Assembly: GCA_016703425.1 (NCBI GenBank)
Contig: JADJCA010000011.1
Span: 58,050 to 122,049 of the forward strand
From: Myxococcales bacterium
GTDB lineage: Bacteria > Myxococcota_A > Polyangia > Polyangiales > Polyangiaceae
Direction of reading: 5' to 3'
DNA: 64,000 nucleotides
Shown piece after piece: positions 7,484 to 45,404 of the stretch. Every line of letters starts with the position of its first letter. Positions within the stretch are counted from its first letter, which is position 1. The notes beneath the pieces were generated by a model. The model saw nothing but the letters and a program-made list of their open reading frames with translations, was not told where the DNA came from and did no database searches. A program made the translations under genes and the position numbers.

Positions 7484-8077
7484 ATGAGTTTCATCAACTA
7501 CATGGCCAGGGAGATCAACTGCAAGTTGGTCTACTACGGGCCCGGTCTTTGCGGAAAGACCACCAATCTCCAGTACATCTACGAACGCACCAATCCGGAT
7601 GCGAAGGGGAAGATGATCAGCCTCGCGACGGAAACGGAGCGAACGCTGTTCTTCGACTTCCTGCCGCTGTCGCTCGGTGAAATCCGCGGGTTCAAGACGC
7701 GCTTTCACCTCTACACGGTGCCCGGGCAAGTCTTCTACGACGCCTCGCGGAAGCTGATCCTGAAGGGCGTCGACGGCGTCGTCTTCGTCGCCGACTCCCA
7801 AGTCGAGCGCACCGAGGCAAACCTCGAGTCGGTCGAGAACTTGCGCACGAACCTCGCGGAGCAGGGCTACTCGCTCGACAAGATTCCGTACTGCGTGCAG
7901 TACAACAAGCGCGACCTCCCGAACGCCGTGACCGTCGAAGAGCTCCGCCAGATGCTGAACACGACCAACGTGCCCGACTTCGAGGCCGTTGCGCGCACCG
8001 GCGTAGGCGTCTTCGACACGCTCAAGGCCATCGCGAAGCTCGTCCTCACGGAGCTCAAAAAGGGCGGCGGCGGCTGA
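7484..8077 (+). CDS. mglA: MglA, Ras-like small GTPase controlling motility polarity
   Basis: 197 aa, near-identical over long stretches to M. xanthus MglA from memory ([97 protein letters not shown]). Confidence 0.97.
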
Positions 8078-15161: not shown

Positions 15162-15220
15162 GCCTCGCTCCTCCGGCCTGGCAGGCGGCACCCCGCCCGC
15201 GCCATTTCCGCCTTGCTGAC

Positions 15221-16711: not shown

Positions 16712-16718
16712 CGTTCAA

Positions 16719-17309
16719 TTATCTCTCTTTTCCCTTCTGGCGTGCTCCGGAGAGAATCGCGGCCGAGGCGCTAAGCTCGCTCGTCGTCCAAAGACGACTG
16801 GGGTCGAGGACCAAGCCGACGGCAGACTGAGTTCCCGGCCCTGCTCGATCGCCGAGCTGGGAGGACGGGAAGCCGTGGCTTAGCGCTTGGGGCCGAATAC
16901 GGAACACACCAGGGGGCAGCGGAATCGTCGCACCGAGCGGAGCTACGAACAAGCATTCTCCGGTGCCGACAGCCATGGGCACCTCTGAGCCGAGGTGGGG
17001 TACACGGAGGAGAACCCAGGCGATTTGCGGGATATCCAGCTCCAGCAGCGCGCCGAGCTGCCACGACGCGTAACGTTGACCAGCGACCTCAAGGAGGCCC
17101 GGAGACAGCTCTTCTGCATCAGCCTCGGCCGGAACGATGAGCGTCTGCGTTTGGATCGGCAAAACGAGGCGATCAATCCACTGGGCGGGCAGCGCGCCGA
17201 CAAAGTCCCCACACTGGAGGAAGACGCACAGCTCAGCCTTATCCGCGTCGGGTTGGGCGCCGCCCCAAGTCGAGAGGCTTGCGCCACCGCTGGAGGTCGA
17301 CGCCGTCAT
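16719..17309 (-). CDS. CheW-like coupling protein (divergent)
   Basis: About 190 aa, CheW-like core by position and weak motif similarity. ATG overlaps the cheA stop (ATGA). Confidence 0.55.
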   Translation of the reverse strand: MTASTSSGGASLSTWGGAQPDADKAELCVFLQCGDFVGALPAQWIDRLVLPIQTQTLIVPAEADAEELSPGLLEVAGQRYASWQLGALLELDIPQIAWVLLRVPHLGSEVPMAVGTGECLFVAPLGATIPLPPGVFRIRPQALSHGFPSSQLGDRAGPGTQSAVGLVLDPSRLWTTSELSASAAILSGARQKGKER

Positions 17310-22318: not shown

Positions 22319-22388
22319 ACCAGCCCCTCACGCTCGGCCAGGCCGAGAAAAACCGGGAAGCAAAAAGTGTCGAAAACCGTGGGCGGCC

Positions 22389-24665: not shown

Positions 24666-24820
24666 GGTCGTCTTCTCCTAAAACTCGAAACTCTCAAATC
24701 GCACCGGCAGCGCGGGAAGCGCGTGGCTGAGTGGCCGCTCCGCCGGTGAAAAACTCTTTGTCGCCCCGCCAGAACCCCCGGAGGTCTCTGGCCCCATCCC
24801 CTAAGCCGCTATCTTCCTCG

Positions 24821-25438
24821 CTACTGATATTTCAGTTGCTCCAGTCGCTGCAAAAGAGCGGCTGTGTCGAGCACCGTGACGAAGAGGCCTCCACGGTTGT
24901 CGGCCTCCAAGAATCCCTGGACGAGCGGGTTGTCGCCGCCGGCTTTCGGCCGGCTGAGGACGCCCGGTCCGATCTCGAGGACGATCTCCATCCGGTCGAT
25001 GAGGACGCCCGCCATGAGGTTGCTCGCTCGAATCACGAGGACCGGGTACGGCTTTCCGTCACCGACCGTGATTTCCGAGCGTTTGCTGGCAGGGATCTCG
25101 AGAATTTCAGCCAGGTCGATCAGCGCCAGCGGTGTTCCGCGGAAGTTGAACAGGCCGAGCATGGCCGACTTGGACAGCGGCACGGGAGCCAATTGGTCGA
25201 CTGTCACCAGCTCGCCAACGAGGCCGATGTCGAGGGCGAAGCAGTCGCCGCAGAGCCAGAACGCGCACACGCGCTGGACCCCGCCGCCCTTGTTGGCAGC
25301 GCCTTGTGATCCCCCCGACCCGCCGGACCCCTTGCCGCTGCTCTGACCGCTGCCGGAACGGCCGGAGGAGCCCGAGCCGCTTCCGCCTTTCGAGGAGCCG
25401 CGCGAGCGGGAGGAACCTTTGGAAGACTCAGTTGCCAT
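24821..25438 (-). CDS. CheW-like protein with a 50-aa Gly/Ser-rich N-terminal extension
   Basis: CheW core (LVTVDQLAPVPLS...GLFNFRGTPLALIDLAEIL...VLVIRASNLMAGVLIDRMEIV). GAAGGGA RBS. Confidence 0.8.
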   Translation of the reverse strand: MATESSKGSSRSRGSSKGGSGSGSSGRSGSGQSSGKGSGGSGGSQGAANKGGGVQRVCAFWLCGDCFALDIGLVGELVTVDQLAPVPLSKSAMLGLFNFRGTPLALIDLAEILEIPASKRSEITVGDGKPYPVLVIRASNLMAGVLIDRMEIVLEIGPGVLSRPKAGGDNPLVQGFLEADNRGGLFVTVLDTAALLQRLEQLKYQ

Positions 25439-25457
25439 GGTTTCCCTTCAGCTGACT

Positions 25458-25820
25458 TCAGCCGACGTAACGCTTGATGATTGCTTGGAGCGTGTCGGGG
25501 GTGAACGGCTTCGCGACGTGGTCGTCGGCGCCTTGTTTCTGGCCCCAGAAGCGGTCGCTGTCGCCGCCCTTGGACGTCACGAGGACGACCGGAATCTTGG
25601 AGGTGTCGGGGTCGGTCTTGAGCTTGCGGCAGGCGTGAAAGCCGTTCATCGACGGCATCACGACGTCGAGGAAGATGAGCTGCGGCTTCACCTCTTTGGC
25701 CCGGGCGAGCGCCTCGCTGCCGTCGGTGGCGTATTCAGGCTTGTGACCGGACGACGTCACGACGCGGCCGATGAGCTCGCGGTCGGTCTGTACGTCGTCA
25801 ACGATGAGAATGGTTCCCAT
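25458..25820 (-). CDS. single-domain CheY-like response regulator (PilG/PilH-like)
   Basis: 120 aa REC: ILIVDD, D at LIFLDVVMPSMNG, T, KPF. Confidence 0.85.
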   Translation of the reverse strand: MGTILIVDDVQTDRELIGRVVTSSGHKPEYATDGSEALARAKEVKPQLIFLDVVMPSMNGFHACRKLKTDPDTSKIPVVLVTSKGGDSDRFWGQKQGADDHVAKPFTPDTLQAIIKRYVG

Positions 25821-25848
25821 GGAGTCCTCGGAATTGGGCAGGCGGCGT

Positions 25849-27624
25849 TCAGGCGACGAGCAAGCGCTCTAGGTCAACATACGTAATGGGCTTTGTCAGT
25901 ACGGAATCAAAACCGGCGGCCGAGAGCTCGTCGACCTTCTCGCGAGAAGGCGTGTCGAGCACCGCGACGACCGCCAGATGGGAGAGATCGTCGGCCTTTC
26001 GGACCTGGGCCACGGCGCGTACCGCAGCGTCGCCGGCGGCGTCCGCGTTGAGGATGACCATCCGCGGCCTCTCCCTGAGGATCGCGGCGAAGATGTCTTT
26101 GTCGGAGTCGAAGGCCACGAGCGACAGGGGCTCGGCGCGGTTCTGAAGCAGCTTGGTGAGCGGCGCCTGGAACCCTTCGACGTCGGGCTCGAGGATCATG
26201 ACGGCGCTGGGTCGCTTGGTCTCGGCGGCGACCGCTGCGACGTGCCGCTCGCGGATGAGCCCCACGTGGAGGAGCCTCGCGACGATGTGGGCGGCCTCGC
26301 GCGCCGGTAGGCCGCTGCGGTTCGTCAGCGTCTGAACGCTGTTGCCACCACCCACGAGGCTGAGAATGCGGCGCTCCTCGGCGGAGAGCTCGAAGTCGCG
26401 AAGGCGGCGGCTGAAGTTCTCGGCGCGCTCGAAGACCGCCTCGGTCTTGGGCAGACGCGCCTCGACGGTCGCGCGGCCAGAAGGCCGACGGAACAGCTCG
26501 AGCTCGAGCTGGTCGACCGAGATGCGAAGGCCGTAGGCGTCGACGTAAGAAGGGTGCGTCGGCCGCTCGCGCCAGAAAAAGCGCACCGAGCTCGCCTCGA
26601 TGATGTCGAGGAGCGAGCGCTTTCCCTGCCTTTGAAGCAACGGCGCGAGATCGGTCGTCGGCAGGTAGCCGCGCTCGGCGAGGGTCACGAAGAACGGCTT
26701 GCCGCTCGAGCGCTGGTCGGCTTCTGCGCGCTCGCGCACGTCGGCGGCGAGGGCCGGCAGCGCGACCTTCGCGTCGCGGCAGTAGTCGATGGGATCGTGG
26801 CTCGTGGCGAGGAGGACTTCGCCGCGGCGAAGGTACGCGACGACCTTGCGGCTGCCGGCGGCGAGCCAAAGCTCGCCCGTTTGACCCGAGGCACGGATCA
26901 TCTTCACGATGTCCGTGGGGGACCAGCCGGTGGCCTTGCCGGAGAGCGACCCCTCGCCCTCTTCGACCGGCTCCGCGGGGCCAGCGCCGCCGAGCACTTC
27001 TTTGAAGACCGGCACGAGGGCGTCGAGCACTTGTCCGACGAGCTCGGGCGTCAAAAACTTTCGCGCAAAGTAGGGCGCCGGTTGGTTGGCGCCGAGCTGC
27101 GCCATCCAGTCGGGGATGCGCGCAAACTGCGGCCGCAGCGACGCGAAGAGCGACTTCGCCGCCGTCTCCTTCTGGCGAAAGGAGAAGAGCGAGACGCTGG
27201 CCGGCGCCGGCGGACGCGACGGCCTCAGCGACGCCGTCGCCGCTTGCGCCTTCTTGTCGAGCACCGCTTGCACACGCGTGACGATGTCGTCGGGCGAAAA
27301 CGGCTTCGAGACGTAGTCGACCTGCGCGCGCATCCCCTTGAAGAGCTCGCGGACGTTCTCGTCCTTCGCCGTCATCAAGATGATCGGTACGTTGGCCGTG
27401 CGCGCATCCTGACTAAGCCGCTGCGCGACATCGATGCCACGCATGTCGGGGAGGACGAAGTCGAGGAGAATGAGCTCGGGGATGCCGTGGTGATGCGTCG
27501 CCTTGAGCAGGCCCTCATGGCCCGTCGTGGCGTAGTCGATGGTGGCATCGATGTTCTTGAGCGCCAGGCCGACGGCCTTGCGAACGGTGAGGCTGTCGTC
27601 GATGACGAGGAGACGCGACGTCAT
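25849..27624 (-). CDS. multidomain response regulator: receiver, PATAN/DUF4388-like, middle domain, C-terminal pseudo-receiver
   Basis: Trimmed to ATG 27624, which overlaps the upstream stop (ATGA). N-terminal REC (LLVIDDSLTV...ELILLDFVLPDMRG...SKPF). DUF4388-like segment (GQTGELWLAAGSRKVVAYLRRGEVLLATSHD). C-terminal REC-like fold without a clear acid pocket. Confidence 0.6.
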   Translation of the reverse strand: MTSRLLVIDDSLTVRKAVGLALKNIDATIDYATTGHEGLLKATHHHGIPELILLDFVLPDMRGIDVAQRLSQDARTANVPIILMTAKDENVRELFKGMRAQVDYVSKPFSPDDIVTRVQAVLDKKAQAATASLRPSRPPAPASVSLFSFRQKETAAKSLFASLRPQFARIPDWMAQLGANQPAPYFARKFLTPELVGQVLDALVPVFKEVLGGAGPAEPVEEGEGSLSGKATGWSPTDIVKMIRASGQTGELWLAAGSRKVVAYLRRGEVLLATSHDPIDYCRDAKVALPALAADVRERAEADQRSSGKPFFVTLAERGYLPTTDLAPLLQRQGKRSLLDIIEASSVRFFWRERPTHPSYVDAYGLRISVDQLELELFRRPSGRATVEARLPKTEAVFERAENFSRRLRDFELSAEERRILSLVGGGNSVQTLTNRSGLPAREAAHIVARLLHVGLIRERHVAAVAAETKRPSAVMILEPDVEGFQAPLTKLLQNRAEPLSLVAFDSDKDIFAAILRERPRMVILNADAAGDAAVRAVAQVRKADDLSHLAVVAVLDTPSREKVDELSAAGFDSVLTKPITYVDLERLLVA

Positions 27625-28676
27625 CAGCGCACCTCCGCGACAATGCCAGAGACCTTGCGCGGGCCTTGGCGAAGGCGCCCGGTAAGCAAATCGAGGACCG
27701 CCGGCCCACCTTCGGCGACGGCCTTGGCGATATCGTCTTCCGCGCCCGACGCGCCCGTCAGCGCGACGACAACGTCGCCGCTCGCGGCTCCAAAACGCAT
27801 CATGAGGGAACCCGTCTTTCCGAAAGCGTTGGAGAGGTTGTACGCGTTGGGCAGTCGCATCGGCGAAAGGATGCGAAGCGGCACTTCGGGCCCCGCCGGC
27901 CAATAGACGATCCAGTCTTCACCGTCGGGCGCGAGGTGCAGCGCGGCGTAGCTGCCGCCGAGCATGTCACGGAGCTTGCGCTCCTTCTCGTCGTCGGGCT
28001 CTTCGCGGCGCATGGCGTCGGCCACGCGGGCCGCTTCCGCGTCGACGAGCAACGGTGCGCCCGGGTCAACGCGAAGGAGAGCCGTGAGCCCCTCGGTCGT
28101 GCCTTGCACAACGAGCGGCAACGAATCGCTGGGGGTGTCACCGCCACACGTCATGGCGCCGACCCAACCGTTGGCGTGTTGACGCTCGCTCGTGCGGACG
28201 GGACCGTGGCGGGCGTCGGCGGGCCCGGCACCGAGGAGGCTCCCGGTGGCGCTCACAGTGTTGGCGGTGAGGGCTCGAATGCGCGCGGCGATGCGCCCCG
28301 CAGACAGCGGCGGAGAGAGCAGCGTCACGCGGCCGCTCTGAATCGTCACCGTCGGTCGCACGAGCGGCTCTTCGCAGAGGAGCAAGAGCGAGATCGTCGG
28401 CATGCTGCGCGTCATGAGCTCGACGATGTCGTCGGGCACGCGACGCTCACCAGCGGCGAGCCACGCGACGAGCAGCGCCGGCGGCGGAGCACCGGTGGCC
28501 GCGAGCCACGAGACGAGCTGCGTGGCCGGTGCAGCGGTTGCGTCGCCAGTCCAAAGGAAACGGCGGACGCCCGCTGCTTCACACGCGCCGACGATGTCGC
28601 CGAGCAACGACTCGGGCATGCGGTGCGATGCCACCACGACGGTGGACTTGCTCTCTTCGGGCGATTGATTGGTCAC
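27624..28676 (-). CDS. hypothetical protein in che operon
   Basis: High GC3. GTG 28676 lies 2 nt after the CheW stop. Alternative ATG 28619. No recognised motifs. Confidence 0.4.
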   Translation of the reverse strand: MTNQSPEESKSTVVVASHRMPESLLGDIVGACEAAGVRRFLWTGDATAAPATQLVSWLAATGAPPPALLVAWLAAGERRVPDDIVELMTRSMPTISLLLLCEEPLVRPTVTIQSGRVTLLSPPLSAGRIAARIRALTANTVSATGSLLGAGPADARHGPVRTSERQHANGWVGAMTCGGDTPSDSLPLVVQGTTEGLTALLRVDPGAPLLVDAEAARVADAMRREEPDDEKERKLRDMLGGSYAALHLAPDGEDWIVYWPAGPEVPLRILSPMRLPNAYNLSNAFGKTGSLMMRFGAASGDVVVALTGASGAEDDIAKAVAEGGPAVLDLLTGRLRQGPRKVSGIVAEVR

Positions 28677-35562: not shown

Positions 35563-35787
35563 TCACGGACGCAAGGAGCGCCGCTCCGCGCGCGCGAAGA
35601 GCGCTTCGCGGACGACCACGACGAGGAACATGAGAAACGACAGCGTTCCGAGCCCTTGCCCGAGCGAGAGCGCGAGCAAGATGGGCCACACGGTTGGATT
35701 GAAGACCGACCACACCATGAGCGGCAAGGCGACGATGGCCAACACGGCGGCGGCGCGAATGAGTCGCTCGTTCGAGGGTATTTTCAC
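35563..35787 (-). CDS. small hydrophobic membrane protein (about 74 aa), tentative
   Basis: GTG overlapping the upstream stop (GTGA). Two hydrophobic helices (AAVLAIVALPLMVWSV, PILLALSLGQGLGTLSFLMFLVVVV). High GC3. Confidence 0.3.
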   Translation of the reverse strand: MKIPSNERLIRAAAVLAIVALPLMVWSVFNPTVWPILLALSLGQGLGTLSFLMFLVVVVREALFARAERRSLRP

Positions 35788-36479
35788 GGGTGGCCCCCAT
35801 CGGCGGCGGGCGCCGGCATGGCATCGCGCGGAAGCCCGCCGTCTTCGAGGAGCTCTTTGCCGAGTTTGGTGACGGGATGGGCGAAGCCATGGCAGCCCGG
35901 GCTCGCGCAAGAGACCTGACCGCTTCGAAGGTCCGCTAGGGAGGACGCGTGGTCGGCCTTCTGAAGCCACCGGGGAGCTGTCATCGTGTGGCAACTGACG
36001 CAGTTGGCGTTGGGCAAGGGCCGAAGAATGCGGATCTCGTGCTTCGCCCGCTCAAGCGGCACGTTGCGAAAATCTTTCAGGTAGAGGGCCACGTGCCTCA
36101 TGCCGCCGAGTTTCGTGACGACGAAGCCATACATGCCGTAGTCCTGGTGGCAGTTGTAGCAATTGCTCGCGCCGAAGGAGCGGCTTCTCGCGTGAATGCC
36201 CGCGAGCGATGTAGTGTTCGGGTCGCTTGAATCGTTGGCGTGGGGCTCCATCACGTGGCACGAGCCGCAGAACGCGCGGGACTGGGTCGCCTGAAAACCA
36301 CTGACGTTGGCAAAGAGCGCGGTAGCGATGGGAAACACGAAGAGGCCGAAGAGCAGCCAGAGCTTCGTGGCCAGCGTAAACGCGGGCCGCCGCACGAGGT
36401 ATGTGACCAAGATTGCGATGGCGATCGACGCGCAGGCGAGCGCCAGCCATTCGATCCATGTGGCGCCGTGGTGTTGCAT
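35784..36479 (-). CDS. membrane-anchored tetraheme c-type cytochrome, NapC/NirT/NrfH-like (3 CxxCH plus 1 Cx4CH)
   Basis: Trimmed to ATG 36479. Two N-terminal hydrophobic helices, then CGSCH, CYNCH, CVSCH and CASPGCH. Confidence 0.7.
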   Translation of the reverse strand: MQHHGATWIEWLALACASIAIAILVTYLVRRPAFTLATKLWLLFGLFVFPIATALFANVSGFQATQSRAFCGSCHVMEPHANDSSDPNTTSLAGIHARSRSFGASNCYNCHQDYGMYGFVVTKLGGMRHVALYLKDFRNVPLERAKHEIRILRPLPNANCVSCHTMTAPRWLQKADHASSLADLRSGQVSCASPGCHGFAHPVTKLGKELLEDGGLPRDAMPAPAADGGHP

Positions 36480-36497: not shown

Positions 36498-37760
36498 ATG
36501 AAAGCGGGCCCGCAGCGCCAATGCAAGGTGCGTGAGCGAAGTCGCGTGTCGCCCCGTGACGTCCTCGCCCTCTCTGCACTCGCCGCGTCCACCCTCGTCG
36601 CGGGCGTCGCCGGGGCCGATCCGCTCCGATTGCGCGGCGACGCGCTGGTGCAAACTCGCTCCCCCGCCCCGACGGGGCTCTTGGTCCTCCGCGGCGAAGA
36701 CGGAAAGAGATTCGGCAAGACCATCGTCGACGCGGAGACCGTCGCGTGGCTCGGCGCCTTCAGTGGTGACGACGCCTCCGTAGGAGACGTCCTGACGCTC
36801 TCGGTGCGAGCGCGTCACGCGCCGACCGGTTCTGAGCTGCGCGCGGGCCGCATGGTCGTCACCATGGGAGCCATTCGCCCGACCCACGTGGACGGCGCGC
36901 GCGGGCTCGTGCGGGCCTTCGGCGGTACGACGCTCGAGGCCTTCGCCGGCGCCCCGGTGGCGCGGCGCTTCGACTACCGCACCTTCGATTTTGCGACCGG
37001 CGGTCGACTTGGTCAGTCGGTCGGTGACGCCGCGGCCGTCGGGGTGTCCTACGCGCAGCGGCACAATGGCGCGAGCCTCGCCGACGAGGAGGTTGGCGCG
37101 GACGTGGCGGTCGCGCCAGTTCCCTGGTTGTCGCTAGCGGGCCGCAGCGCCATGGATCTCGTGAGCCGCGGCGTAACCGACGCGCTTGGCTCGCTCTCGC
37201 TCACGGGCCAGCGAACGAAGGCGGAGCTCTTCGCCACGCACCGTTCGCCAGGACGGCTCCTGCCGGCCACGTCGCTCTTCTCCGTGCTGGGCGACTACGC
37301 CGCGACGAGTGCCGGCACCACGCTTCGCCTCCGCGCGTTCCCGCGCCTCGACTTGATCGCGAGCGGCGTGGTGCAAACGCAGGCAAAGGACGTCGGGGGG
37401 CAGGGCTCGGGGCGCGTGGTGCTCGCCCTCGACGACGATTGGAATGGTTCCATCTTGCTCGAAGGTCGGCGCGTCACGTTGGGACAGGCGCGTTGGAGCG
37501 GAGTCCGAACGGCGGCCGTCATTCCCCTCAGTCGCGCCTACCGACTCGGCACCGAGATCGAACTGGTGCGGCCCGACGATCCGCGCGGTCGTGGCTCGCT
37601 GTGGCCTTGGGCCTTCGTCAGCATGAGCCGTCGCTCCGCGTCGGGTCTCGAATTTGGCGTCGGCGTCGAGGCCTCAAGCGGCCCCGATCGCCGTGAAGAG
37701 GTCGTGGCGCTCGGGCGCGTATCGGTCGAGTGGGACTCGCTGCGGGGCGCGACGCGATGA
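36498..37760 (+). CDS. secreted beta-strand-rich protein, candidate outer-membrane porin-like partner of the downstream cytochromes
   Basis: Trimmed to ATG 36498 (signal peptide LALSALAASTLVAGVAGA). Many short amphipathic alternating segments. Stop overlaps the next ATG (ATGA). The start is only 18 bp from the divergent NrfH-like start, so one of the two starts may be wrong. Confidence 0.5.
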   Translation: MKAGPQRQCKVRERSRVSPRDVLALSALAASTLVAGVAGADPLRLRGDALVQTRSPAPTGLLVLRGEDGKRFGKTIVDAETVAWLGAFSGDDASVGDVLTLSVRARHAPTGSELRAGRMVVTMGAIRPTHVDGARGLVRAFGGTTLEAFAGAPVARRFDYRTFDFATGGRLGQSVGDAAAVGVSYAQRHNGASLADEEVGADVAVAPVPWLSLAGRSAMDLVSRGVTDALGSLSLTGQRTKAELFATHRSPGRLLPATSLFSVLGDYAATSAGTTLRLRAFPRLDLIASGVVQTQAKDVGGQGSGRVVLALDDDWNGSILLEGRRVTLGQARWSGVRTAAVIPLSRAYRLGTEIELVRPDDPRGRGSLWPWAFVSMSRRSASGLEFGVGVEASSGPDRREEVVALGRVSVEWDSLRGATR

Positions 37761-38791
37761 GAACAGGGTGGCTCTTCGCGTGCCTCGGCCTCGCGTCTTG
37801 CGCGGGCCTTTTGGGCATCAAATCCAGCGACCGAGAGCGCAGCTTCGAGCACCGCGCTCACCTCGTGCGCGGCGTGTCTTGCACGAGCTGCCACCTCGGG
37901 ATGGGCCAAGCTGGCGACACTGGGCCCCTCCATCTTCCGAGCAAGACGCGCTGCCTCGAGTGCCACACCGCTGCCCACGACCCTGGCGACTGCGCGAGCT
38001 GCCACGGGCGATCAAGCGCTCGGCAGGGGGCGGAGCTCGCCAAGCGGCATCTCGTCTTCGATCATCGCTCGCACATCGCGCGTCAGGACGGCCAGTGCGT
38101 GCGCTGCCACACGGAGGCCGGCAGCAAAGACGCGCCTTCGCTGCGGCCCGCCATGGCTGTTTGCTTGTCGTGCCACGCGCACAAGGATCAATGGAAGACT
38201 CGCGAGTGTGACGCGTGCCACGTTGATCTTCCGGCGGAGCTGGCGAAGCCGTCGAGCCACGTGGTGCACGAAGGAGACTTTCTTCGTGAGCACGGCGTGC
38301 GAGCTGCGAGCAGTCGCGATCTCTGCGCGACGTGCCACGCGGAGCCCTTCTGCGCCGCTTGCCACGGCACCACGGCGCCCACGCTGCCGCATCGCCTCGA
38401 CTTCGGGAAGACCACGAGCCCGTCCTTGCATCGCGCCGGCTTCCGTCTCAGGCACGCCGACGAAGCGCGCGCGAACCCGGGCCTCTGCACGACCTGCCAC
38501 AGCGACGAGCGCACGTGCAGCGACTGCCACGCAGCGAGGCGCGTGGGCGCAGCGCCCGGCATCCGAACACCACACCCGCCCGGGTGGGTCCGCGCTCGCG
38601 GTGGCGAACACGGGCGCGCCGCACGCATGGAGCCGGGCTCCTGCGCCGCGTGTCACGGCGGCGCCGGTGAAGCCCTGTGCGTTGGCTGTCACAAGGTCGG
38701 AGGCCCCGGTGGCAACCCGCACGGTCCGGGCTTCGGTAGTGCGCTCGACAAGGGGCGCGATCAACCGTGCCGGCAGTGTCACGCGCCATGA
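37757..38791 (+). CDS. multiheme c-type cytochrome lipoprotein, 13 CxxCH motifs
   Basis: Lipobox FACLGLASC. 13 canonical CxxCH in about 340 aa. Translationally coupled on both sides (ATGA). Confidence 0.8.
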   Translation: MRTGWLFACLGLASCAGLLGIKSSDRERSFEHRAHLVRGVSCTSCHLGMGQAGDTGPLHLPSKTRCLECHTAAHDPGDCASCHGRSSARQGAELAKRHLVFDHRSHIARQDGQCVRCHTEAGSKDAPSLRPAMAVCLSCHAHKDQWKTRECDACHVDLPAELAKPSSHVVHEGDFLREHGVRAASSRDLCATCHAEPFCAACHGTTAPTLPHRLDFGKTTSPSLHRAGFRLRHADEARANPGLCTTCHSDERTCSDCHAARRVGAAPGIRTPHPPGWVRARGGEHGRAARMEPGSCAACHGGAGEALCVGCHKVGGPGGNPHGPGFGSALDKGRDQPCRQCHAP

Positions 38792-40587
38792 AGAAATGGC
38801 GCGTTCTTTTGCTCGTGATCCTGGTCGCGGCGCTCGCTCTGGCGTTCGCGTCTTTTCGCACCGTCGTGGAGCGTCCCGCGCCCGTCACGCCGACTCAGTT
38901 CATCCCGCCCACCTGGTCCGAGGCACGCAAGTCTCCGATGCACGAGGCTCACGTCGGCAAGCGAAAGATCGCCTGCGCCGAGTGCCACGGCGCGGGCTCC
39001 GAAGCGGGCTCTGAAGCGCGCTTCGACGCGCCACCCGACCTGGCCGCTTGCGCGCGCAGCGACTGCCACGCGGAGGCGAGCGCCCGGGCCCACGTGGGGA
39101 GCACGTCGCAGAAGACCACGTGCCTGACGTGCCACAGTTTTGCGGCGACGCCGACGACAACGCCGTGCGTCGGATGCCACGAGAAGAAGCCGCTCGATGG
39201 CGGCGCCGCCGGAGTGGCGGCAAACCTCGCGCATCATGCGACGCCGGACGCGAAGTGTGGCGCTTGCCACAAGGTGCATGCGGCCGCCGACGCCGGTCGA
39301 CGAAAGAACGGCGACTGCTCGGGCTGCCACGCCGACGCCGGCGACGGCCATGGGGCCCAGGCGCGCAAAGAGCCTGACGCGTCGCTCGATCCGGCGACGT
39401 GCGCCAGTTGCCACGGACCCCACGAGGGGAAGGCCGCCGCAACGCAGCGCTGCGTCTCGTGCCACGCGCCGACCGAAGCGCGCGGTCCGGCGTCCGCGCG
39501 CCACGGGCTCGCGGGCCAGAACGCTCCCCGCGTGCTCGTCGCGAACATCGGGCCGCGGAGCCACGAAGCGTGCACGAGCTGCCATGCGCCGCACGACACG
39601 AAGCTCGAGCACATAAAGCCGTGCGCCGGCTGTCACGAGCGCCAACGCGGCGCGCTTCGCCCGGGCCACGACCAGTGCGTCGGCTGCCACAAACCCCACG
39701 AGAACGTCGATGCGGCGCGCGCGGCTTGCGCTTCCTGCCACACGGCGAAGGTCGCGCTCGCTGCGGCCCGCGTGCCCGAGCATGCACGCTGCGAGAGCTG
39801 CCACTCGCCCCACGCGGCGACGCCGGCGAAAGACGCGTGCCGCCGGTGCCACGAGCCCGTCTCCCATGGCGTCTCTCACGGCAAGGCAGGCGAGTGCGTC
39901 CAGTGTCACGTGCCTCACACGGCGCCGCCGAATCAAGGGGCGGCGCGCGCATCGGCCTGCGTCACTTGCCACAAGAACGTGCCGGCGGCGGCCCACGCCG
40001 CGAAGGCCACGTGCGTCGGATGCCACAAGCCGCATGGGTTTGGCGGTCTCCAGGCCTCCACCACGTTCTGCAGCAGCTGCCACCAAGAGGCGGCGAAGGC
40101 CGTGCGGACAGGCCATGGCGACTGCGCCAAGTGTCACGCGTCCGTTCACACACCGAAGCAGACGCAGCCGTGCGGCTCCTGCCACAAGGAGGAAGCGAAG
40201 ACTTCACCCAAGGGCCATCAGCGTTGCGAAAGCTGCCATGCCCCGCACCAAGGGAGCTCGCCAAAGGTTGCGAGTTGCACCGGTTGCCATCAAAAAAATG
40301 GCACCGGTCCCCACAAGAACCTCGCCAAAGGGTGCGCCACGTGTCACCGGCCTCACGGTCCGAAGGGCGTCGCGACGCCTCCCGCGTGCAAGACATGTCA
40401 CGTTCAATCGACGCTGCCCGGGCTTCACCAGAAGCCATCCCACGGCGCGTCATGCGAACGTTGCCACTCTTCGCACGAGGCGCCGCGAGCCGATCGAGCG
40501 TCGTGCACCGGCGGATGTCACACGGATCGTCGCGGGCACCAGCCCGATGCAAAGGTCTGCAACGGGTGCCACATCTTCAGCGATTGA
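38788..40587 (+). CDS. giant multiheme c-type cytochrome, about 27 heme-binding motifs (25 CxxCH, 1 Cx4CH, 1 Cx3CH) in about 600 aa, N-terminal signal/anchor
   Basis: Counted motifs directly in the translation (CAECH ... CNGCH). N-terminal hydrophobic segment (LLLVILVAALALAFASF). Confidence 0.8.
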   Translation: MKKWRVLLLVILVAALALAFASFRTVVERPAPVTPTQFIPPTWSEARKSPMHEAHVGKRKIACAECHGAGSEAGSEARFDAPPDLAACARSDCHAEASARAHVGSTSQKTTCLTCHSFAATPTTTPCVGCHEKKPLDGGAAGVAANLAHHATPDAKCGACHKVHAAADAGRRKNGDCSGCHADAGDGHGAQARKEPDASLDPATCASCHGPHEGKAAATQRCVSCHAPTEARGPASARHGLAGQNAPRVLVANIGPRSHEACTSCHAPHDTKLEHIKPCAGCHERQRGALRPGHDQCVGCHKPHENVDAARAACASCHTAKVALAAARVPEHARCESCHSPHAATPAKDACRRCHEPVSHGVSHGKAGECVQCHVPHTAPPNQGAARASACVTCHKNVPAAAHAAKATCVGCHKPHGFGGLQASTTFCSSCHQEAAKAVRTGHGDCAKCHASVHTPKQTQPCGSCHKEEAKTSPKGHQRCESCHAPHQGSSPKVASCTGCHQKNGTGPHKNLAKGCATCHRPHGPKGVATPPACKTCHVQSTLPGLHQKPSHGASCERCHSSHEAPRADRASCTGGCHTDRRGHQPDAKVCNGCHIFSD

Positions 40588-42112
40588 CGCGACCGTCGAC
40601 GTGGTTCTTCGCGCCCGCCGGCGTCAGCGAGAGCGTTCCGACAAAACCGCTCGTGAGGCCGCTGTGGCAAATGCTCCCTCCGCACTGGGTCGCCGCGGCG
40701 TGAGGAGGAGGCGGCGGCGTGGCGTGGCACGCGCCGCAGGCCCGGGCCGCCGGCCCGCTGTTCCACGCCGGCGTCTGAAGCGAACCGCCGACGCCCGTAT
40801 GGCAAGCGGTCTCGGAGCATGTCTTGGTCGCCGCGTCGTAGCGGGCGCGGGCGCCACCGGCGAGCGCCGGGCCTGCGAGGCGAACGACGGCACCGGCACC
40901 GACCGGATGTTTGCCGACGGGGATCACGTGGCACGTCGCGCACGCGACGGGCCGCGACGATGACGGCTTTGCGTGCGCGGTGTGAGCCCCCGTCGTGGGC
41001 CACGGATCGTCGCCGCTACCGTGGCAAGCGCCGCACTGCCCCGAGCCGTCGCCCAGGTCGATGCGGCCGTTCAAGTGTAGGCGAACAGGCTGCGTGAGCG
41101 AGGCGCCGTCGGCCGCCACTTCATGGTGACACTGTCGACAGGGTCCATCGTAGTGAGACGCGGGCGGCGAGCGATGGCAGTCGTTGCACCCCACGCTGGC
41201 CTCGCCCCATGCCGGCGTCTCGCGGTTGCCGCCCCGCGCGTGGCAACTTCCAGCGCAGCGCTTGGACGCTGGGTCGAAGGTGGCGCCACGGCCGGCGAGC
41301 GTCTCGTCGAGCCAAACTTCAACGTGACCGTCGCCGTGCGCGCCGGCCAACTCGAAGGTCGGCGGAACAGGATGACACGTCTTGCACGCGCGACCCTCCG
41401 CCTGCGTCGCCCCGGCATTGACATGCGCGCGATGCGAGTCGCGCGGCGTGCTCGGCGCCGCGCCGCATGAATTCTTCGGCGGGCTCGCGCGGTCGCCGTC
41501 GCCGTGGCACGTGCCGCAGGCGAGCGGTCCGCCCTCGCGCGAGTGGCATGAGGTGCACGCCGTCGCACCGGGCGCTGCGACGCGGCCCGGCGCCCCGCTC
41601 AGCGCTCCGCTGTTGGGGGCGCCTTGATGGCACTTGCCACACGCGTCGACATCCGCAGCGTCAAGCATCGGTCGGTAACGCGAGGCACGAAGGGTAGACG
41701 CATGCCCCTCCGGCAGCCTCGGATCGCCGTAGCGCGGCGAGTGCACGCCTCCCGCCGTCCCCGGTGCGCCTTCGTCGAGCCAGCGCGTGAGCAGCGCCCG
41801 CTCCTCGGCCGAGAGGAGCGCCGCGTGATCGGAGCGCGCGAGCGCATCGACGATGGCCGGCGGTTGGCCGGCGGTCGCCGATCGGCCCGCGGCAGTGCAG
41901 GACATAACGCTCACGTAAGAGTCAGCCTTCCATCCCGCCGCCGGTGCAGGGCCTGCGTGACACGGCGCGCATCGTGCGCCCAGAAGGGCGCCGACGCCGT
42001 CGCGATAGGAGACCACGGCCGGCCGTTCAACACGTTCGCTCGTGCACGCGGAACTGGCGCCCAGGGAAAACAAGAGCGATAAGGAGACCCTCTTGAGGCC
42101 CGGTCGAAACAC
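40577..42112 (-). CDS. multiheme c-type cytochrome, about 13 heme motifs (10 CxxCH, 1 Cx3CH, 2 Cx4CH), secreted
   Basis: Trimmed to GTG 42112 giving MFRPGLKRVSLSLLFSLGASSAC. Motifs CAPCH...CGGSICH. Convergent with the 27-heme gene (11-bp 3' overlap). Confidence 0.7.
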   Translation of the reverse strand: MFRPGLKRVSLSLLFSLGASSACTSERVERPAVVSYRDGVGALLGARCAPCHAGPAPAAGWKADSYVSVMSCTAAGRSATAGQPPAIVDALARSDHAALLSAEERALLTRWLDEGAPGTAGGVHSPRYGDPRLPEGHASTLRASRYRPMLDAADVDACGKCHQGAPNSGALSGAPGRVAAPGATACTSCHSREGGPLACGTCHGDGDRASPPKNSCGAAPSTPRDSHRAHVNAGATQAEGRACKTCHPVPPTFELAGAHGDGHVEVWLDETLAGRGATFDPASKRCAGSCHARGGNRETPAWGEASVGCNDCHRSPPASHYDGPCRQCHHEVAADGASLTQPVRLHLNGRIDLGDGSGQCGACHGSGDDPWPTTGAHTAHAKPSSSRPVACATCHVIPVGKHPVGAGAVVRLAGPALAGGARARYDAATKTCSETACHTGVGGSLQTPAWNSGPAARACGACHATPPPPPHAAATQCGGSICHSGLTSGFVGTLSLTPAGAKNHVDGRVNR

Positions 42113-42182
42113 ACCGCGAGGGTGCTCGGTGGGAACGACAAATGCAAGGCCCGGGCGGCGATTGATGAAAGGGAGCGCGGTT

Positions 42183-43508
42183 ATGATTCTGTCTCGATCA
42201 ACGGGGATCCTCTTTGCAGTTTCACTCGTGGGTCTGAGCGGCCTGGTGGGCTTCGCGTGCAGCGGAAACGACGGCAAGGACGGAGCTGCTGGCGCCCTCG
42301 GCGCTGCCGGCGTCGCGGGCCCGCAAGGACCGTCTGGCGCCCCGGGCGCCGTGGGCCCCGCCGGCGACGGCGGCGCCGGCGCAGTCCTCTCCGGTGCCTG
42401 CACGACGCCGTGCCACACCTTCAACGGCGTGGTCGATCAGTGGCGCTTCAGCAATCACTCGCACCCGCAGGAGAACGAGATCGGCGGCGGGGTCTGCGGC
42501 AACTGCCACGGCGTCGATGGCATCGAGCAGCGCGTGGGGGGCAACTACGTGCTCAGCGCGGACGCCGGTGCGCTCCCCACCAACGTCGCGCAAGGTCACA
42601 TCAACTACAAGACCGTGTCCGGGTCCTCGACGGAGATCACGTACGCGGGCGCATCGACCATCGGTCGCATCCACTGCGCGACGTGCCACGAGTTCAACTC
42701 AACGACCGATCCGCACGTGACGGGCAAATACACGGAGCGACAGGCGCCCATTCGTGTCGCCGGTGGCGCCAACGACGTGGCCTACATCGAAAAGACGCTC
42801 GCCGACGCGGGCGGCGCTGTCGTGGGTCAGTCGGTCGGATACAAGACCGCGAACGTCTGCATCTTCTGCCACAAGTCCCGCAAGGACATCTCGGTCTACA
42901 TCACCGCCAACAACAACCTGTCGCGCAACTGGGGACCGCACGAAGGTCCGCAAGCCGACATCTTCACGGGCAAGGGCGGCTACGAGTTCGCGGGCAAGAG
43001 CTACGGCACGGCCGTCCACACCACCATCGCGAACGGCTGCGTCGACTGCCACATGCAGGCGGTGGCCGGCAACAGCAACGTGCCGGACCACACGATGAAG
43101 CCCAAGGTGGCCTACTGCAAGACGTGCCACACGACGTACACCGGCACGGACTTCAACATCGATTCGGGCCGGACCATCGTGAAGGGGCTTCTCACGGAGC
43201 TTCAGCAACTCCTCGACGAGCGCGGCTTGCTCACGCGCACGCCCGCAGCGCCGTACCAAAACCTCACGGACGAGGAGAAGGCCGACGGGCAGTTCCACCT
43301 CGACAAAGCGAGGAAGCCGGCCGGCACCGTCGACGCGGATTTGGCGGGTGCACTCTACAACTACCTGCTCGCGGCGCGCGGCAAGGACCTCGGTGTCCAC
43401 AACCCGCGCTACACCAAGCAGTTGCTCTTCGACTCGATCGTGAAGCTCGGAACGCCGGGCGACGGCGGAACGTACACGCCGAAGACGCTCACCATCCGGC
43501 CGAACTGA
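42183..43508 (+). CDS. lipoprotein with collagen-like (Gly-X-Y)12 repeat fused to a hexaheme c-type cytochrome domain
   Basis: Lipobox LVGFAC. GKD-GAA-GAL-GAA-GVA-GPQ-GPS-GAP-GAV-GPA-GDG-GAG triplets. CTTPCH (Cx3CH) plus CGNCH, CATCH, CIFCH, CVDCH, CKTCH. AAAGGGAG RBS before ATG 42183 (ATG 42165 is an alternative). Confidence 0.75.
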   Translation: MILSRSTGILFAVSLVGLSGLVGFACSGNDGKDGAAGALGAAGVAGPQGPSGAPGAVGPAGDGGAGAVLSGACTTPCHTFNGVVDQWRFSNHSHPQENEIGGGVCGNCHGVDGIEQRVGGNYVLSADAGALPTNVAQGHINYKTVSGSSTEITYAGASTIGRIHCATCHEFNSTTDPHVTGKYTERQAPIRVAGGANDVAYIEKTLADAGGAVVGQSVGYKTANVCIFCHKSRKDISVYITANNNLSRNWGPHEGPQADIFTGKGGYEFAGKSYGTAVHTTIANGCVDCHMQAVAGNSNVPDHTMKPKVAYCKTCHTTYTGTDFNIDSGRTIVKGLLTELQQLLDERGLLTRTPAAPYQNLTDEEKADGQFHLDKARKPAGTVDADLAGALYNYLLAARGKDLGVHNPRYTKQLLFDSIVKLGTPGDGGTYTPKTLTIRPN

Positions 43509-43631: not shown

Positions 43632-45404
43632 ATGCTCCGAACGTCAGCGGTCCCCTTCGTTCTCCTCGCGCATCTCGTTACCGCTTGCAGCACCGACATC
43701 CCGACTGACGCCGCCGCCGCGGGCGACGCGGACGAGGGTCCCGGCGGCGCCGTCGCGGTCGGCGACGTCGCGCCCCGGCCCATTGCGCCGCCGGAGGAAT
43801 CGCCGGTGGCCTGCGGCGGTGTGGACTGCACGAAGCTGCCTCACGTCGACCCGTCACGGGTCACCTGCCAACAAGGCCAGTGTCAGGTGGCAAGGGCCTG
43901 CGCTCCAGGCTGGGGCCACTGTGGCAACGATCCGACAACCGGCTGCGAGACCGACCTCACGGCGACCGCCAGCTGCGGCGCTTGCTCAGTCCAGTGCGGT
44001 GGCCCGACCCCTCTGTGCGTGCCCGAGGAGGGCGGCGCGGCGCGCTGCGTCTCCTCCTGCGAGGGCACCCGAACGCCCACGGCCTGCGGCAACACGTGCG
44101 TGGACACCCAGAACGACCCCCTTCACTGCGGGGGGTGCGCGCCCTGCGGCGTTACCCTGAACGGTTCGGCCACTTGCAGTGGAGGCCTCTGTGGGCTTGC
44201 TTGCAATCCCGGGTTTCACCGCTGCGGGTCGACCTGTCGCGAAGACACGAGCGTCACCGCCTGTGGCCCTTCGTGCGCGACCTGCGCCGCGCCGCCACAC
44301 AACGGTGTCGCCGCGTGTGTTGCGGGAGCGTGCACCGTCGCTTGCGACGCCGGCTTCTACGCCGATGGCGGCACGTGCAAGCCGACTTACACGGTGAGCG
44401 GCGCTGCCGCCAACGTCGTCGCCTTCGACGTCGACAGCGCGGGCGGTATGCTCGCCGTCGCGCGCGGCACGGGAGAGCTGCGCTTCCAATGCTTCAGCCC
44501 CAACGGCATCCCGATGGGACCCGACCAACAGCTGACCTCGTTCGATGCAGCAACGACGGCGCCCGGGCGGGTGATGGTGGCGCGCTCCCGGGTCACCAAG
44601 CAGTCGCTTGTGCTCTGGCACGTCAGCGGACCGTCGGCCCACGAGGCGCATTACGCGTACGTGAGTGCGTCATGTCAGATTCAGAAGTCCGCGCCCCTCG
44701 CCACGACCGGCGGCAACATCTACCTCCAAGGTGTGGCCATCGACGATCAAGGCTTAGGCGCCGCCCTCTTGAACCTCGCGGGGCCCAAGGTCCGAGAGTT
44801 GGTTCAGTTCGACAAGAGCGGTGCCCCCCTCTCGGTCAACGACTTCGAAGCGTTCGGCGCCTACGACAGCCACTTGGCCATGCGACGCACGACCGGCGAG
44901 ACGATCATCGTAACGTCCACCTACGTGGCGCCGAAGTTTGAGCGTCACTACCGCCGCTTCAGCGGCGCCGGCGCCGCCATCGACCCGGAGTTCATCGCGA
45001 TCAACGGCCTCCTCGGCTCCGGTAGCTACGTGCGCGTCGGCATGGACGACGACGGTGCCTTCGTCGTCCTCGGCGAGATGACACGAATCCCCAACGCATG
45101 GGGGGCGACGTTCCACAACGCGACGGGCGCCGTCGTCGCCACGCTACCGGCCGCTGGCATGGCGGGCTATGCCGACACATTCGTGCCCGTGACGAGCAGC
45201 GGCGACTTCGTTTGGCCCATTCGTACCGCCATCACTTCGGCGCGCGAGCGCCGTTCCCCGGCGGGAGTCTTGGCCGGCGCGTCACCGTGGGGGTCGCCCT
45301 ACGCCAACACGCTCGAGCTGCGCCTCGATGCGAACGACTCGACGTACATGATCCTCAGCGGTGGCACTGGACGCACCGTCAAGAAGGACCCCTTCGCGCT
45401 CTGA
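43632..45404 (+). CDS. Cys-rich repeat lipoprotein (myxobacterial cysteine-rich repeat-like N-terminus, beta-propeller-like C-terminus)
   Basis: Lipobox LVTAC. About 200 aa with regularly spaced Cys (CGxC/CxxC... repeats about 35-40 aa apart). High GC3. Confidence 0.65.
   Translation: MLRTSAVPFVLLAHLVTACSTDIPTDAAAAGDADEGPGGAVAVGDVAPRPIAPPEESPVACGGVDCTKLPHVDPSRVTCQQGQCQVARACAPGWGHCGNDPTTGCETDLTATASCGACSVQCGGPTPLCVPEEGGAARCVSSCEGTRTPTACGNTCVDTQNDPLHCGGCAPCGVTLNGSATCSGGLCGLACNPGFHRCGSTCREDTSVTACGPSCATCAAPPHNGVAACVAGACTVACDAGFYADGGTCKPTYTVSGAAANVVAFDVDSAGGMLAVARGTGELRFQCFSPNGIPMGPDQQLTSFDAATTAPGRVMVARSRVTKQSLVLWHVSGPSAHEAHYAYVSASCQIQKSAPLATTGGNIYLQGVAIDDQGLGAALLNLAGPKVRELVQFDKSGAPLSVNDFEAFGAYDSHLAMRRTTGETIIVTSTYVAPKFERHYRRFSGAGAAIDPEFIAINGLLGSGSYVRVGMDDDGAFVVLGEMTRIPNAWGATFHNATGAVVATLPAAGMAGYADTFVPVTSSGDFVWPIRTAITSARERRSPAGVLAGASPWGSPYANTLELRLDANDSTYMILSGGTGRTVKKDPFAL

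Follow-up and report, generated by a model that had tools for sequence, protein, structure and literature searches.

The window analysed here, a stretch of 64,000 nucleotides, carries on its forward strand a gene for a c-type cytochrome with 27 haem sites, and the genes around it encode a predicted outer-membrane beta-barrel, a membrane-bound tetrahaem cytochrome and three multihaem lipoproteins. The features of the cluster are, by window position:

35563-35787, minus strand: small 74-aa protein with two predicted membrane helices and no His; its start overlaps the NapC/NirT stop (GTGA)
35784-36440, minus strand: NapC/NirT/NrfH-type tetrahaem membrane cytochrome, candidate quinol dehydrogenase (PF03264, E 9e-11, four motifs)
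36498-37760, plus strand: predicted outer-membrane beta-barrel, 420 aa, secreted, 20 predicted strands
37757-38791, plus strand: 13-haem lipoprotein, 344 aa, lipobox GLASC (Pfam Cytochrome_C7 and Paired_CXXCH_1)
38788-40587, plus strand: 27-haem c-type cytochrome, 599 aa plus stop codon by translation
40577-42112, minus strand: 13-haem lipoprotein, 511 aa, lipobox GASSAC, TIGR01904 CxxxxCH/CxxCH domain
42165-43508, plus strand: hexahaem lipoprotein, lipobox VGFAC, with an uninterrupted collagen-like (G-x-y)13 run followed by a helical C-terminal region

The barrel, 13-haem and 27-haem genes of the plus strand are translationally coupled, because ATGA overlaps join the barrel stop to the ATG of the 344-aa lipoprotein gene, and the stop of the latter to the start of the 27-haem gene. 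At practically every related locus, this lipoprotein gene follows that of the barrel. The barrel protein features a cleavable-type signal peptide ending in AGA/D and an invariant loop (TSLFSVLGD); no Pfam or NCBIfam family matched it, and no sequence kinship with MtrB or any named family was detected. The NapC/NirT gene is divergent from the barrel operon and adjoins the cluster in related loci, and the matches of its product to TIGR03153 and TIGR02161 fall below the respective cutoffs. Genes homologous to that of the 74-aa protein are located downstream of NapC/NirT at loci L001, L084 and L085. The 511-aa lipoprotein, a candidate outer-face cytochrome, matches TIGR01904 with 58 bits (E 4e-16; cutoff 27 bits); its gene is convergent with the 27-haem gene (11-bp overlap) and is conserved at 12-15 haems. 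The collagen-like run is present in all 44 of the 44 homologues of the hexahaem lipoprotein. A PDB sequence search with a 13-haem lipoprotein gave a weak match to ActA of alternative complex III (E about 1e-4), and those with the other two neighbouring cytochromes gave no useful match. The adjacent COX15 gene was rejected as part of the system because it is missing from related loci.

Haem motifs, axial ligands and the dihaem module

The sequence-only reading of this DNA had counted about 27 haem motifs in about 600 residues, and the translation agrees: the 599 aa comprise 25 CxxCH motifs, one Cx4CH (CARSDCH, aa 88) and one Cx3CH (CTGGCH, aa 573). Each of the 54 Cys residues lies inside a haem motif, next to a content of 58 His and two Met. 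Motif starts are mostly 15-22 aa apart (maximum 40 aa), and the longest stretch without a motif is the N-terminal 62 aa, which includes a hydrophobic, anchor-like segment (aa 6-23) and a juxtamembrane segment with the invariant residues H52 and H55. Shuffling the protein's own residues in 2000 trials yielded 1.4 motifs on average and seven at most. With one haem per 22 aa and 2.30 kDa of peptide per haem, the protein matches or exceeds the density of the densest small cytochromes of the PDB search (STC, 4 haems in 91 aa; PpcA, 3 in 71 aa). No room is left for a non-haem domain, in line with the earlier view that almost no sequence could form one. Four Pfam profiles scored above their curated cutoffs (in brackets), namely PF14522 with 72.1 bits (24.8), PF14537 with 63.3 (25), PF02085 with 42.7 (22.9) and PF09699 (Paired_CXXCH_1) with 40.3 (20.6). 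These profiles, together with the 27 motifs and 27 conserved non-motif His, place the protein among the class III or c7/c3-type multihaem cytochromes. The AF2 model has a pLDDT of 76.5, a pTM of only 0.42 and a helix at aa 2-27.

The 27-haem ORF is a real, intact cytochrome gene and not a chimera, because more than 100 homologues retain its frame and 27 or 25 haems; a chimera or frameshift, which the sequence-only reading had itself raised as an objection, is thereby ruled out for the window ORF. Third-position GC is 0.80 for this frame as compared to 0.69 for a long antisense ORF.

The number of conserved non-motif His residues in the family is exactly 27, i.e. one per haem, and there is no conserved Met: of the two Met residues, one is the initiator (M1) and the other (M51) is kept in just 35% of sequences. 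Each of the 27 haems is predicted to have a second axial His as distal ligand (bis-His coordination). Eight motifs have the form CxxCHxPH, and in three further motifs a His follows 3-4 residues past the proximal His, as had been suggested earlier for minimal bis-His modules with a His soon after CxxCH. From haem 7 onwards the repeat unit is a dihaem module of about 35 aa, and inter-motif segments across 111 sequences have a mean similarity of about 9.4 at the even lags (2, 4, 6) versus about 4.9 at the odd ones (1, 3, 5). Insertions and deletions in the family likewise occur in units of two haems, and the 25-haem forms miss exactly one dihaem module. The haem number appears to be under selection, as it stays at 27 or 25 in proteins that vary between 514 and 705 aa in length. 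More distant relatives have 33-34 haems, and 27 is therefore not a universal ruler. Identity at positions other than Cys and His amounts to 45% at aa 521-599, 27-28% at aa 41-120 and 11-17% at aa 121-320; the ends are thus conserved and the middle is variable, with the C-terminal region of about 80 aa (haems 23-27) as the best-conserved part.

Cx3CH and Cx4CH swap freely with CxxCH at the same haem positions among homologues: haem 2 is Cx4CH in just 7 of 111 sequences, and the penultimate haem is Cx3CH in 65, CxxCH in 42 and Cx4CH in 4. The variants noticed earlier in neighbouring proteins were found again, namely CASPGCH at the fourth haem site of the NapC/NirT protein and CAGSCH, CSETACH and CGGSICH in the 511-aa 13-haem protein, and the hexahaem protein has CTTPCH. 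The proposal of a dedicated maturation context that had been attached to them was dropped, because the variants interchange with CxxCH across the 111 sequences and because the window encodes neither a haem-handling protein with a WWD motif (six-frame scan) nor cytochrome-maturation genes (the same scan and Pfam scans of 20 other ORFs). Nothing indicates a special haem maturation for this cluster; a tolerance of Ccm for CXXXCH and CXXXXCH motifs was reportedly described by Allen and co-workers in 2009. CX3CH and CX4CH have been named before as variant motifs (PMC11492766), and the CxxxxCH/CxxCH domain of the 511-aa neighbour is already covered by TIGR01904. Taken as a whole, the sequence-only reading recognised a dense bis-His cytochrome correctly, went astray on maturation, and overlooked the surroundings that account for the protein, namely its membrane anchor, the barrel and the conserved set of genes.

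A conserved gene set in Polyangia and its relation to known systems

The set of barrel, NapC/NirT and cytochrome genes is present at 57-59 of 60 loci from soil myxobacteria of the Polyangia, among them that of Labilithrix luteola, of which strain DSM 27648 is a cultured host. In this strain the cluster lies at 7.485-7.506 Mb of NZ_CP012333, with AKJ09_07126 as the barrel, and the 27-haem holoprotein would have a mass of about 79 kDa. A 25- or 27-haem ORF comes after the barrel and 13-haem genes in 57 of the 60 loci with enough flank and is split in two more. There is also a rearranged variant, in which the 27-haem gene is divergent from NapC/NirT and the barrel gene forms an operon of its own with genes for 12-haem and 15-haem proteins. 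L. luteola is an aerobe that is not known to respire metals. We did not find the cluster in the literature on porin-cytochrome and multihaem systems in Labilithrix, Polyangia, Haliangium and related taxa, and the electron-transfer chain it encodes is apparently undescribed so far.

Closest in concept are the PCC3 systems, in which a barrel gene lies beside that of a haem-rich (21, 24 or 27 haems), low-complexity, repeat-built periplasmic cytochrome, accompanied by extra outer cytochromes (PMC5566968, PMC10734462). The Polyangia cluster, too, has a barrel gene adjoining that of a cytochrome with at least 21 haems as well as further multihaem cytochromes. PCC3 has been reported in Alpha-, Beta- and Gammaproteobacteria, and the host clade of the present cluster is Polyangia. 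PCC3 features an inner-membrane protein of about 300 aa with five helices and two WX3HX13H motifs, whereas the Polyangia cluster has none and instead encodes the NapC/NirT tetrahaem protein and the His-free 74-aa protein. Unlike in PCC3, the 27-haem protein appears to have a membrane anchor of its own, and the outer cytochromes have 13, 13 and 6 haems as compared to a median of 34 for the extracellular cytochromes of PCC3.

The Geobacter proteins GSU1996 and GSU0592 (12 haems) and GSU2210 (27 haems) resemble the 27-haem protein as single polypeptides with closely spaced haems and c7/c3-type Pfam signatures, and GSU2210 has the same haem total. They consist of trihaem c7 domains in tandem, each of which has one His-Met haem (PMC10138318), whereas the protein described here has a two-haem repeat, no conserved Met and a putative membrane tether; a c7 trihaem repeat was rejected by the period of two in the lag analysis and by the two-haem indel unit. 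The protein does not belong to the decahaem DmsE/MtrA family (TIGR03508), for which it scores 26.7 bits against a cutoff of 192.2. Its top PDB sequence match is HmcA, the 16-haem high-molecular-weight cytochrome of Desulfovibrio and likewise a large multihaem periplasmic protein (E 3e-21), and structural similarity is local and confined to the linear-chain cytochromes STC and MtrA.

With respect to the conduits of the MtrCAB, Pcc and Ext types, the barrel differs in having 20 predicted strands in 420 aa without an MtrB_PioB signature. The Geobacter Pcc (OmaB-OmbB-OmcB) and Ext systems combine a porin-like protein of about 20 strands with periplasmic and lipoprotein cytochromes, a combination that is matched here in architecture only, on the basis of the predicted strands, the lipoboxes and the TIGR01904 domain of the outer cytochrome. 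In Mtr and Pcc systems, small soluble cytochromes carry electrons over the periplasm, not one anchored 27-haem chain.

A possible trans-periplasmic wire and alternative roles

At the N-terminus of members of the 27-haem family, about 20 residues (18 in the window protein) form a strongly hydrophobic segment, which usually ends in R, K or Q-R and has no small-x-small cleavage site. In about one third of the more distant members a lipobox replaces this segment, so that a membrane tether is always present. The N-terminus of the window protein looks like an uncleaved transmembrane anchor, and the protein is probably tethered to the inner membrane. Two features call for caution: the N-terminal segment of the window protein ends with ALAFA/SF, a possible signal-peptidase site, and the basic residues straight after the hydrophobic segment are unusual for the periplasmic side.

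With a probability of roughly 0.55, we propose that the 27-haem protein is an inner-membrane-anchored, peptide-minimised all-bis-His wire that reaches across the periplasm as the long middle link of a porin-cytochrome conduit. The N-terminal helix would retain the protein in the inner membrane while the haem chain reaches into the periplasm. Its membrane-proximal end would exchange electrons with the neighbouring NapC/NirT-type quinol dehydrogenase, and the conserved distal end (haems 23-27) would dock on an outer-membrane module made up of the 20-strand barrel and the coupled 13-haem lipoprotein. From there electrons may pass to the other 13-haem lipoprotein and to the hexahaem lipoprotein with its collagen-like stalk, and the whole assembly would form a conduit of about 63 haems that connects the quinone pool with a redox partner outside the cell or on its surface. 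Tetrahaem clusters of the c3 type are compact, and high haem density alone therefore does not impose a linear chain. A linear wire fits the present protein because its 2.30 kDa per haem puts it among the electron-transfer proteins with less than 5 kDa per haem, in which chain length is linear with haem number, and because about 27 haems were calculated to cross a periplasm of 200 Å (PMC7096707). A periplasm-spanning role has been proposed before, both for periplasmic PCC3 cytochromes (21-27 haems) and for periplasmic wires of Desulfuromonadia (PMC10734462, PMC5566968, PMC11492766). More tentatively, and with considerable doubt, the haem number of 27 or 25 might act as a molecular ruler matched to the width of the periplasm; the protein would then be the first fixed trans-periplasmic wire replacing diffusing shuttle cytochromes, and the porin-cytochrome complex supplied by it, with a collagen-stalked cytochrome at its end, would be of a type not described before.

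The crossing of the periplasm, which is about 20 nm wide, is an unsettled step of extracellular electron transfer, and the characterised systems use small diffusing cytochromes for it. A direct bridge has so far been a matter of calculation (about 27 haems, PMC7096707) and of suggestion for uncharacterised PCC3 and Desulfuromonadia proteins. The 27-haem family offers a clean test case, with a haem number at the calculated value, a clear tether, conserved ends around a variable middle, tightly conserved partner genes and a cultured host. Machinery of the electroactive type would extend to a large and ecologically abundant clade for which we found no such report, and 2.3 kDa per haem represents a very economical natural scaffold for protein-based electronic wires.

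A less probable role is that of a membrane-tethered periplasmic electron store, a capacitor that buffers electrons when acceptors are scarce and does not bridge the membranes. Such a function is the published proposal for the monomeric high-haem periplasmic cytochromes GSU1996, GSU0592 and the 27-haem GSU2210 (PMC10138318) and was also raised for PCC3 (PMC10734462), and the all-bis-His, peptide-minimised design would suit it. A pure store, however, would need no conserved tether, no strongly conserved distal end, no fixed haem number and no strict linkage to barrel and lipoprotein genes. The two roles are not exclusive.

We consider it rather improbable that the 27-haem protein is exported via the beta-barrel to act as a wire outside the cell or on its surface, in the manner of the very large extracellular cytochromes of PCC3. 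The coupling of its gene to the barrel and 13-haem genes, the possible AFA/SF cleavage site and the proposed passage of very thin haem wires through porins (PMC7096707) would be in agreement with export. However, the hydrophobic segment lacks a cleavage motif in most homologues and so points to retention in the inner membrane, two or three lipoprotein cytochromes of the cluster already fit the outer face, and rearranged clusters place the 27-haem gene at NapC/NirT, away from the barrel.

Polymerisation into conductive filaments of the OmcS, OmcE or OmcZ type, a comparison recommended by the sequence-only reading, is very improbable: apart from the high haem content it is favoured only by a match to OmcZ that is weak and at the level of motifs (E about 1e-4), whereas similarity to filament subunits in sequence or fold beyond this match was not detected, and an N-terminal membrane tether and a complete internal ligand set stand against it. 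The 27-haem protein is not OmcS-, OmcE- or OmcZ-like. That the ORF is an artefact of chimeric or frame-shifted assembly or a decaying pseudogene, as an extra C in a 99.8%-identical contig and split copies might suggest, can practically be dismissed, since the window copy is intact, as is a second copy, 97% identical, that was assembled independently from short reads, and since the frame, every Cys pair and the 54 ligand His residues are preserved in more than 100 homologues. The extra C of the 99.8%-identical MAG contig (GCA_964269505.1) lies within the motif of haem 10 and results in a frameshift after aa 281; split copies of the gene are present at several other loci.

Haem motifs, ligands and repeat unit

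The gene at window positions 38788-40587 on the forward strand translates into 599 residues with 27 haem motifs, 25 of them CxxCH, one Cx4CH (CARSDCH, residue 88) and one Cx3CH (CTGGCH, residue 573). All 54 cysteines lie within these motifs, the protein has 58 histidines and only 2 methionines, and shuffling of the same residues yields a mean of 1.4 and a maximum of 7 motifs. The sequence-only reading of an exceptionally haem-dense cytochrome with about 27 motifs including both variants was thus correct. Apart from the N-terminal 62 residues the longest motif-free stretch comprises 35 residues, which leaves no space for a domain devoid of haem. The frame has a third-position GC of 0.80 versus 0.69 for a long antisense ORF, and Pfam assigns the c7/c3/class III and Paired_CXXCH_1 families, every one above cutoff. 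With a peptide mass of 62.0 kDa (2.30 kDa per haem; one haem per 22 residues) the protein is as dense as the smallest cytochromes in our PDB search, STC (91 residues, 4 haems) and PpcA (71 residues, 3 haems), whereas MtrA (333 residues, 10 haems), HmcA (514-556 residues, 16 haems) and OmcZ (258 residues, 8 haems) are far less dense.

An alignment of 111 relatives contains 27 conserved histidines outside the motifs, most of them at 97% or more, which amounts to exactly one distal ligand for each of the 27 haems; two sit in an optional module and are kept wherever this module is present. Since no methionine is conserved in the 111 sequences, every haem is predicted to be bis-His coordinated. From haem 7 onwards two units alternate, CxxCH-x-P-H followed by 9-13 residues, and CxxCH followed by 4-13 (mostly 7-10) residues and a histidine. 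Similarity between inter-motif segments of the 111 proteins is about 9.4 at lags 2, 4 and 6 versus about 4.9 at lags 1, 3 and 5, which indicates a dihaem module of about 35 residues as the repeat. The 25-haem forms have one dihaem module fewer, exactly haems 10-11.

Relatives, reading frame and maturation

More than 300 relatives came up in a protein search, and almost all of the best 120 measure 514-705 residues, and the haem count is constant at 27, or 25 in forms of about 516 residues, despite this 190-residue variation. In an exhaustive HMMER search over 1.84 billion representatives, no more than 185 proteins fell below an E value of 1e-30; they form discrete classes of 25, 27 and 33-34 haems plus a single 73-haem protein, all near 21 residues per haem. 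Among the remoter relatives (proteins P0253-P0375), those with 33-34 haems (about 720 residues) again have N-terminal hydrophobic segments, and one of 1466 residues carries 73 motifs.

A MAG contig of 99.8% identity (GCA_964269505.1, CAXWNY010000014.1; locus L082) has one extra C within the CAGCH motif of haem 10 (window 39629; L082 6842), reading tgcgccgCgctgtcac versus tgc gcc ggc tgt cac in the window, which throws the MAG copy out of frame beyond residue 281. The concern that the window ORF itself might be chimeric or frame-shifted is answered by an intact copy of 97% identity in an independent short-read assembly and by the frame and haem count kept in relatives, which indicate that the window has the conserved frame and that its ORF is intact. 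Split genes also occur elsewhere, namely the barrel gene in homologous locus L001 and the 25-haem genes in L050 and L068; these breaks and the inserted C may reflect either faulty assembly or genuine gene decay.

Among homologues, Cx3CH and Cx4CH alternate with CxxCH at identical haem positions, and no haem-handling WWD protein is encoded in the 64-kb window; nothing in these data calls for a dedicated lyase, and the dedicated maturation formerly supposed for this region finds no support. Both spacings are recognised haem-motif variants (PMC11492766). The CxxxxCH domain of a neighbouring protein is already modelled by TIGR01904. Allen et al. in 2009 reportedly found the E. coli Ccm system tolerant of Cx3CH and Cx4CH spacings.

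The gene cluster and its conservation

Genes of the cluster (window coordinates)
35563-35787, reverse: 74-residue membrane protein, two hydrophobic helices, no His
35784-36440, reverse: NapC/NirT/NrfH-type tetrahaem cytochrome (PF03264)
36498-37760, forward: 420-residue beta-barrel, by fold prediction
37757-38791, forward: 13-haem lipoprotein, ATGA overlaps at both ends
38788-40587, forward: 27-haem cytochrome, by motif count
40577-42112, reverse: 13-haem lipoprotein with TIGR01904 domain, convergent to the 27-haem gene
42165-43508, forward: hexahaem lipoprotein with collagen-like run, (G-x-y)13

Together these genes encode 4 + 13 + 27 + 13 + 6 = 63 haem sites. ATGA overlaps couple the stop of the 420-residue protein gene to the start of the 13-haem lipoprotein gene, and the stop of the latter to the start of the 27-haem gene. 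The 420-residue protein belongs to no Pfam or NCBIfam family and shows 52-64% identity among homologues. Its invariant TSLFSVLGD segment (residues 258-266) and its conserved mature N-terminus DPLRLRGDALVQT (residues 41-55), both of low AF2 confidence, are candidate cytochrome contacts. The NapC/NirT gene is divergent from the barrel operon, and its stop overlaps the start of the 74-residue protein gene in a GTGA; because small genes occupy the same position in loci L001, L084 and L085, the 74-residue protein appears to be a seventh conserved component. Two hydrophobic segments, instead of the single helix usual in the family, lie at the N-terminus of the NapC/NirT homologue, and CASPGCH (Cx4CH) serves as its fourth haem site. 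In the convergent 13-haem lipoprotein, the Geobacter-type CxxxxCH/CxxCH domain TIGR01904 scores 58 bits against a cutoff of 27. The collagen-like run of the hexahaem lipoprotein, uninterrupted and directly behind the lipobox, recurs in 44 of 44 homologues in the fetched loci (6-19 triplets, median 11) and suggests a trimeric stalk that would hold the cytochrome off the membrane; the C-terminal part has a weak NrfA-like match (PF02335, E 7e-4).

A profile scan for the barrel, with one genome per species, gave 122 relatives, and 80 loci were fetched. Their labels are Labilithrix, Polyangiaceae, Kofleriaceae, Sandaracinaceae, Haliangium and Nannocystis or older ones (e.g. Myxococcales, Deltaproteobacteria, Proteobacteria), and the cultured species Labilithrix luteola DSM 27648 is among them. 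A 25- or 27-haem ORF directly follows the barrel and 13-haem genes in 57 of the 60 fetched loci with sufficient downstream sequence; it is frameshift-split in 2 and absent in 1. A lipoprotein subfamily has the same parts in rearranged order: the hexahaem, small-protein and NapC/NirT genes are divergent from the 27-haem gene, which thereby adjoins the gene of this candidate quinol dehydrogenase, and the genes for a secreted protein (in the barrel position) and for 12-haem and 15-haem proteins form a separate operon. The count of 27 is kept there while those of the neighbours shift. Loci L071-L075, L077 and L081 (Kofleriaceae, Haliangium) have extra 10-haem and 12-13-haem cytochrome genes and the 4-haem gene upstream, mostly on the strand of the barrel, unlike the window, where NapC/NirT is divergent. 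Literature searches on porin-cytochrome and multihaem systems found no description of this 63-haem cluster, and it apparently represents an undescribed porin-cytochrome system conserved in Polyangia.

A putative wire across the periplasm

The N-terminus of the window protein's subfamily is a hydrophobic run (median 20 residues), frequently containing aromatics and mostly ending in R, K or Q-R, in which no small-x-small cleavage motif was seen; a lipobox (e.g. LAAC) replaces it in about one third of more distant members. A membrane tether thus appears to be a constant feature of the family. The transmembrane helix of the window protein's subfamily would imply the inner membrane and presumably an uncleaved anchor. 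Residues 2-27 form a confident helix in the AF2 model (pTM 0.42); the run of the window protein itself ends in ALAFA followed by SF, a junction that could be a cleavage site. With Cys and His excluded, the protein shares 45% identity with the family at residues 521-599 (haems 23-27), 27-28% at residues 41-120 and only 11-17% at residues 121-320. Conserved ends and a variable middle are what one would expect of a wire that acts as spacer between two docking sites.

Electron transfer is the function of cytochromes with less than 5 kDa per haem; the length of their haem chain is linear with haem number, and about 27 haems would be needed to cross a periplasm of 200 Å (Edwards et al., PMC7096707). 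In view of this scaling, of the membrane tether, of the conservation at both ends and of the neighbouring genes, the 27-haem protein is best read as an inner-membrane-anchored wire that would span the periplasm as the bridge of a porin-cytochrome system in Polyangia, a reading to which we assign a probability of about 0.55. The wire, presumably linear, would exchange electrons with the NapC/NirT candidate quinol dehydrogenase, as acceptor or donor, and relay them to an outer-membrane module of barrel and 13-haem protein, from which they would reach the outer lipoprotein cytochromes. A role as capacitor, itself compatible with a periplasm-spanning wire, seems rather unlikely. Export of the protein through the barrel is disfavoured and quite improbable, and filament formation is hardly credible. 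The protein is unrelated to OmcS, OmcE and OmcZ, and the nanowire-type interpretation first given to its haem packing finds no support, the periplasmic bridge being the better explanation.

The closest system in concept is PCC3 of Proteobacteria, which pairs a porin with a 21-27-haem periplasmic cytochrome, for which a periplasm-spanning role has been proposed, and also comprises an extracellular cytochrome and an inner-membrane protein of five helices bearing HX13H motifs (PMC5566968, PMC10734462). By analogy the Polyangia cluster would work like PCC3 but misses one defining feature; it is without the five-helix protein, with NapC/NirT in its place, and differs in a wire with its own anchor, in its outer cytochromes and in its host. 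Membership in the Geobacter poly-c7 cytochromes (GSU1996/GSU2210) was rejected on a period of 2 instead of 3 and the lack of a His-Met haem, and membership in MtrA/DmsE on a score of 26.7 bits versus a cutoff of 192.

Behind the cluster, a gene at 43632-45404 (forward) that is not conserved beside it in other species encodes a 590-residue secreted protein with an N-terminal Cys-rich repeat region, the only match of which is weakly CPL1-like. The window also carries a Roadblock/LC7 and small-GTPase pair of MglB/MglA-like appearance (6849-8077) and a large chemosensory cluster (13917-27918) with an MCP, DUF4388 response regulators and a 1673-residue CheA-type kinase that has four Hpt domains; the pair and the cluster are each typical of myxobacteria.
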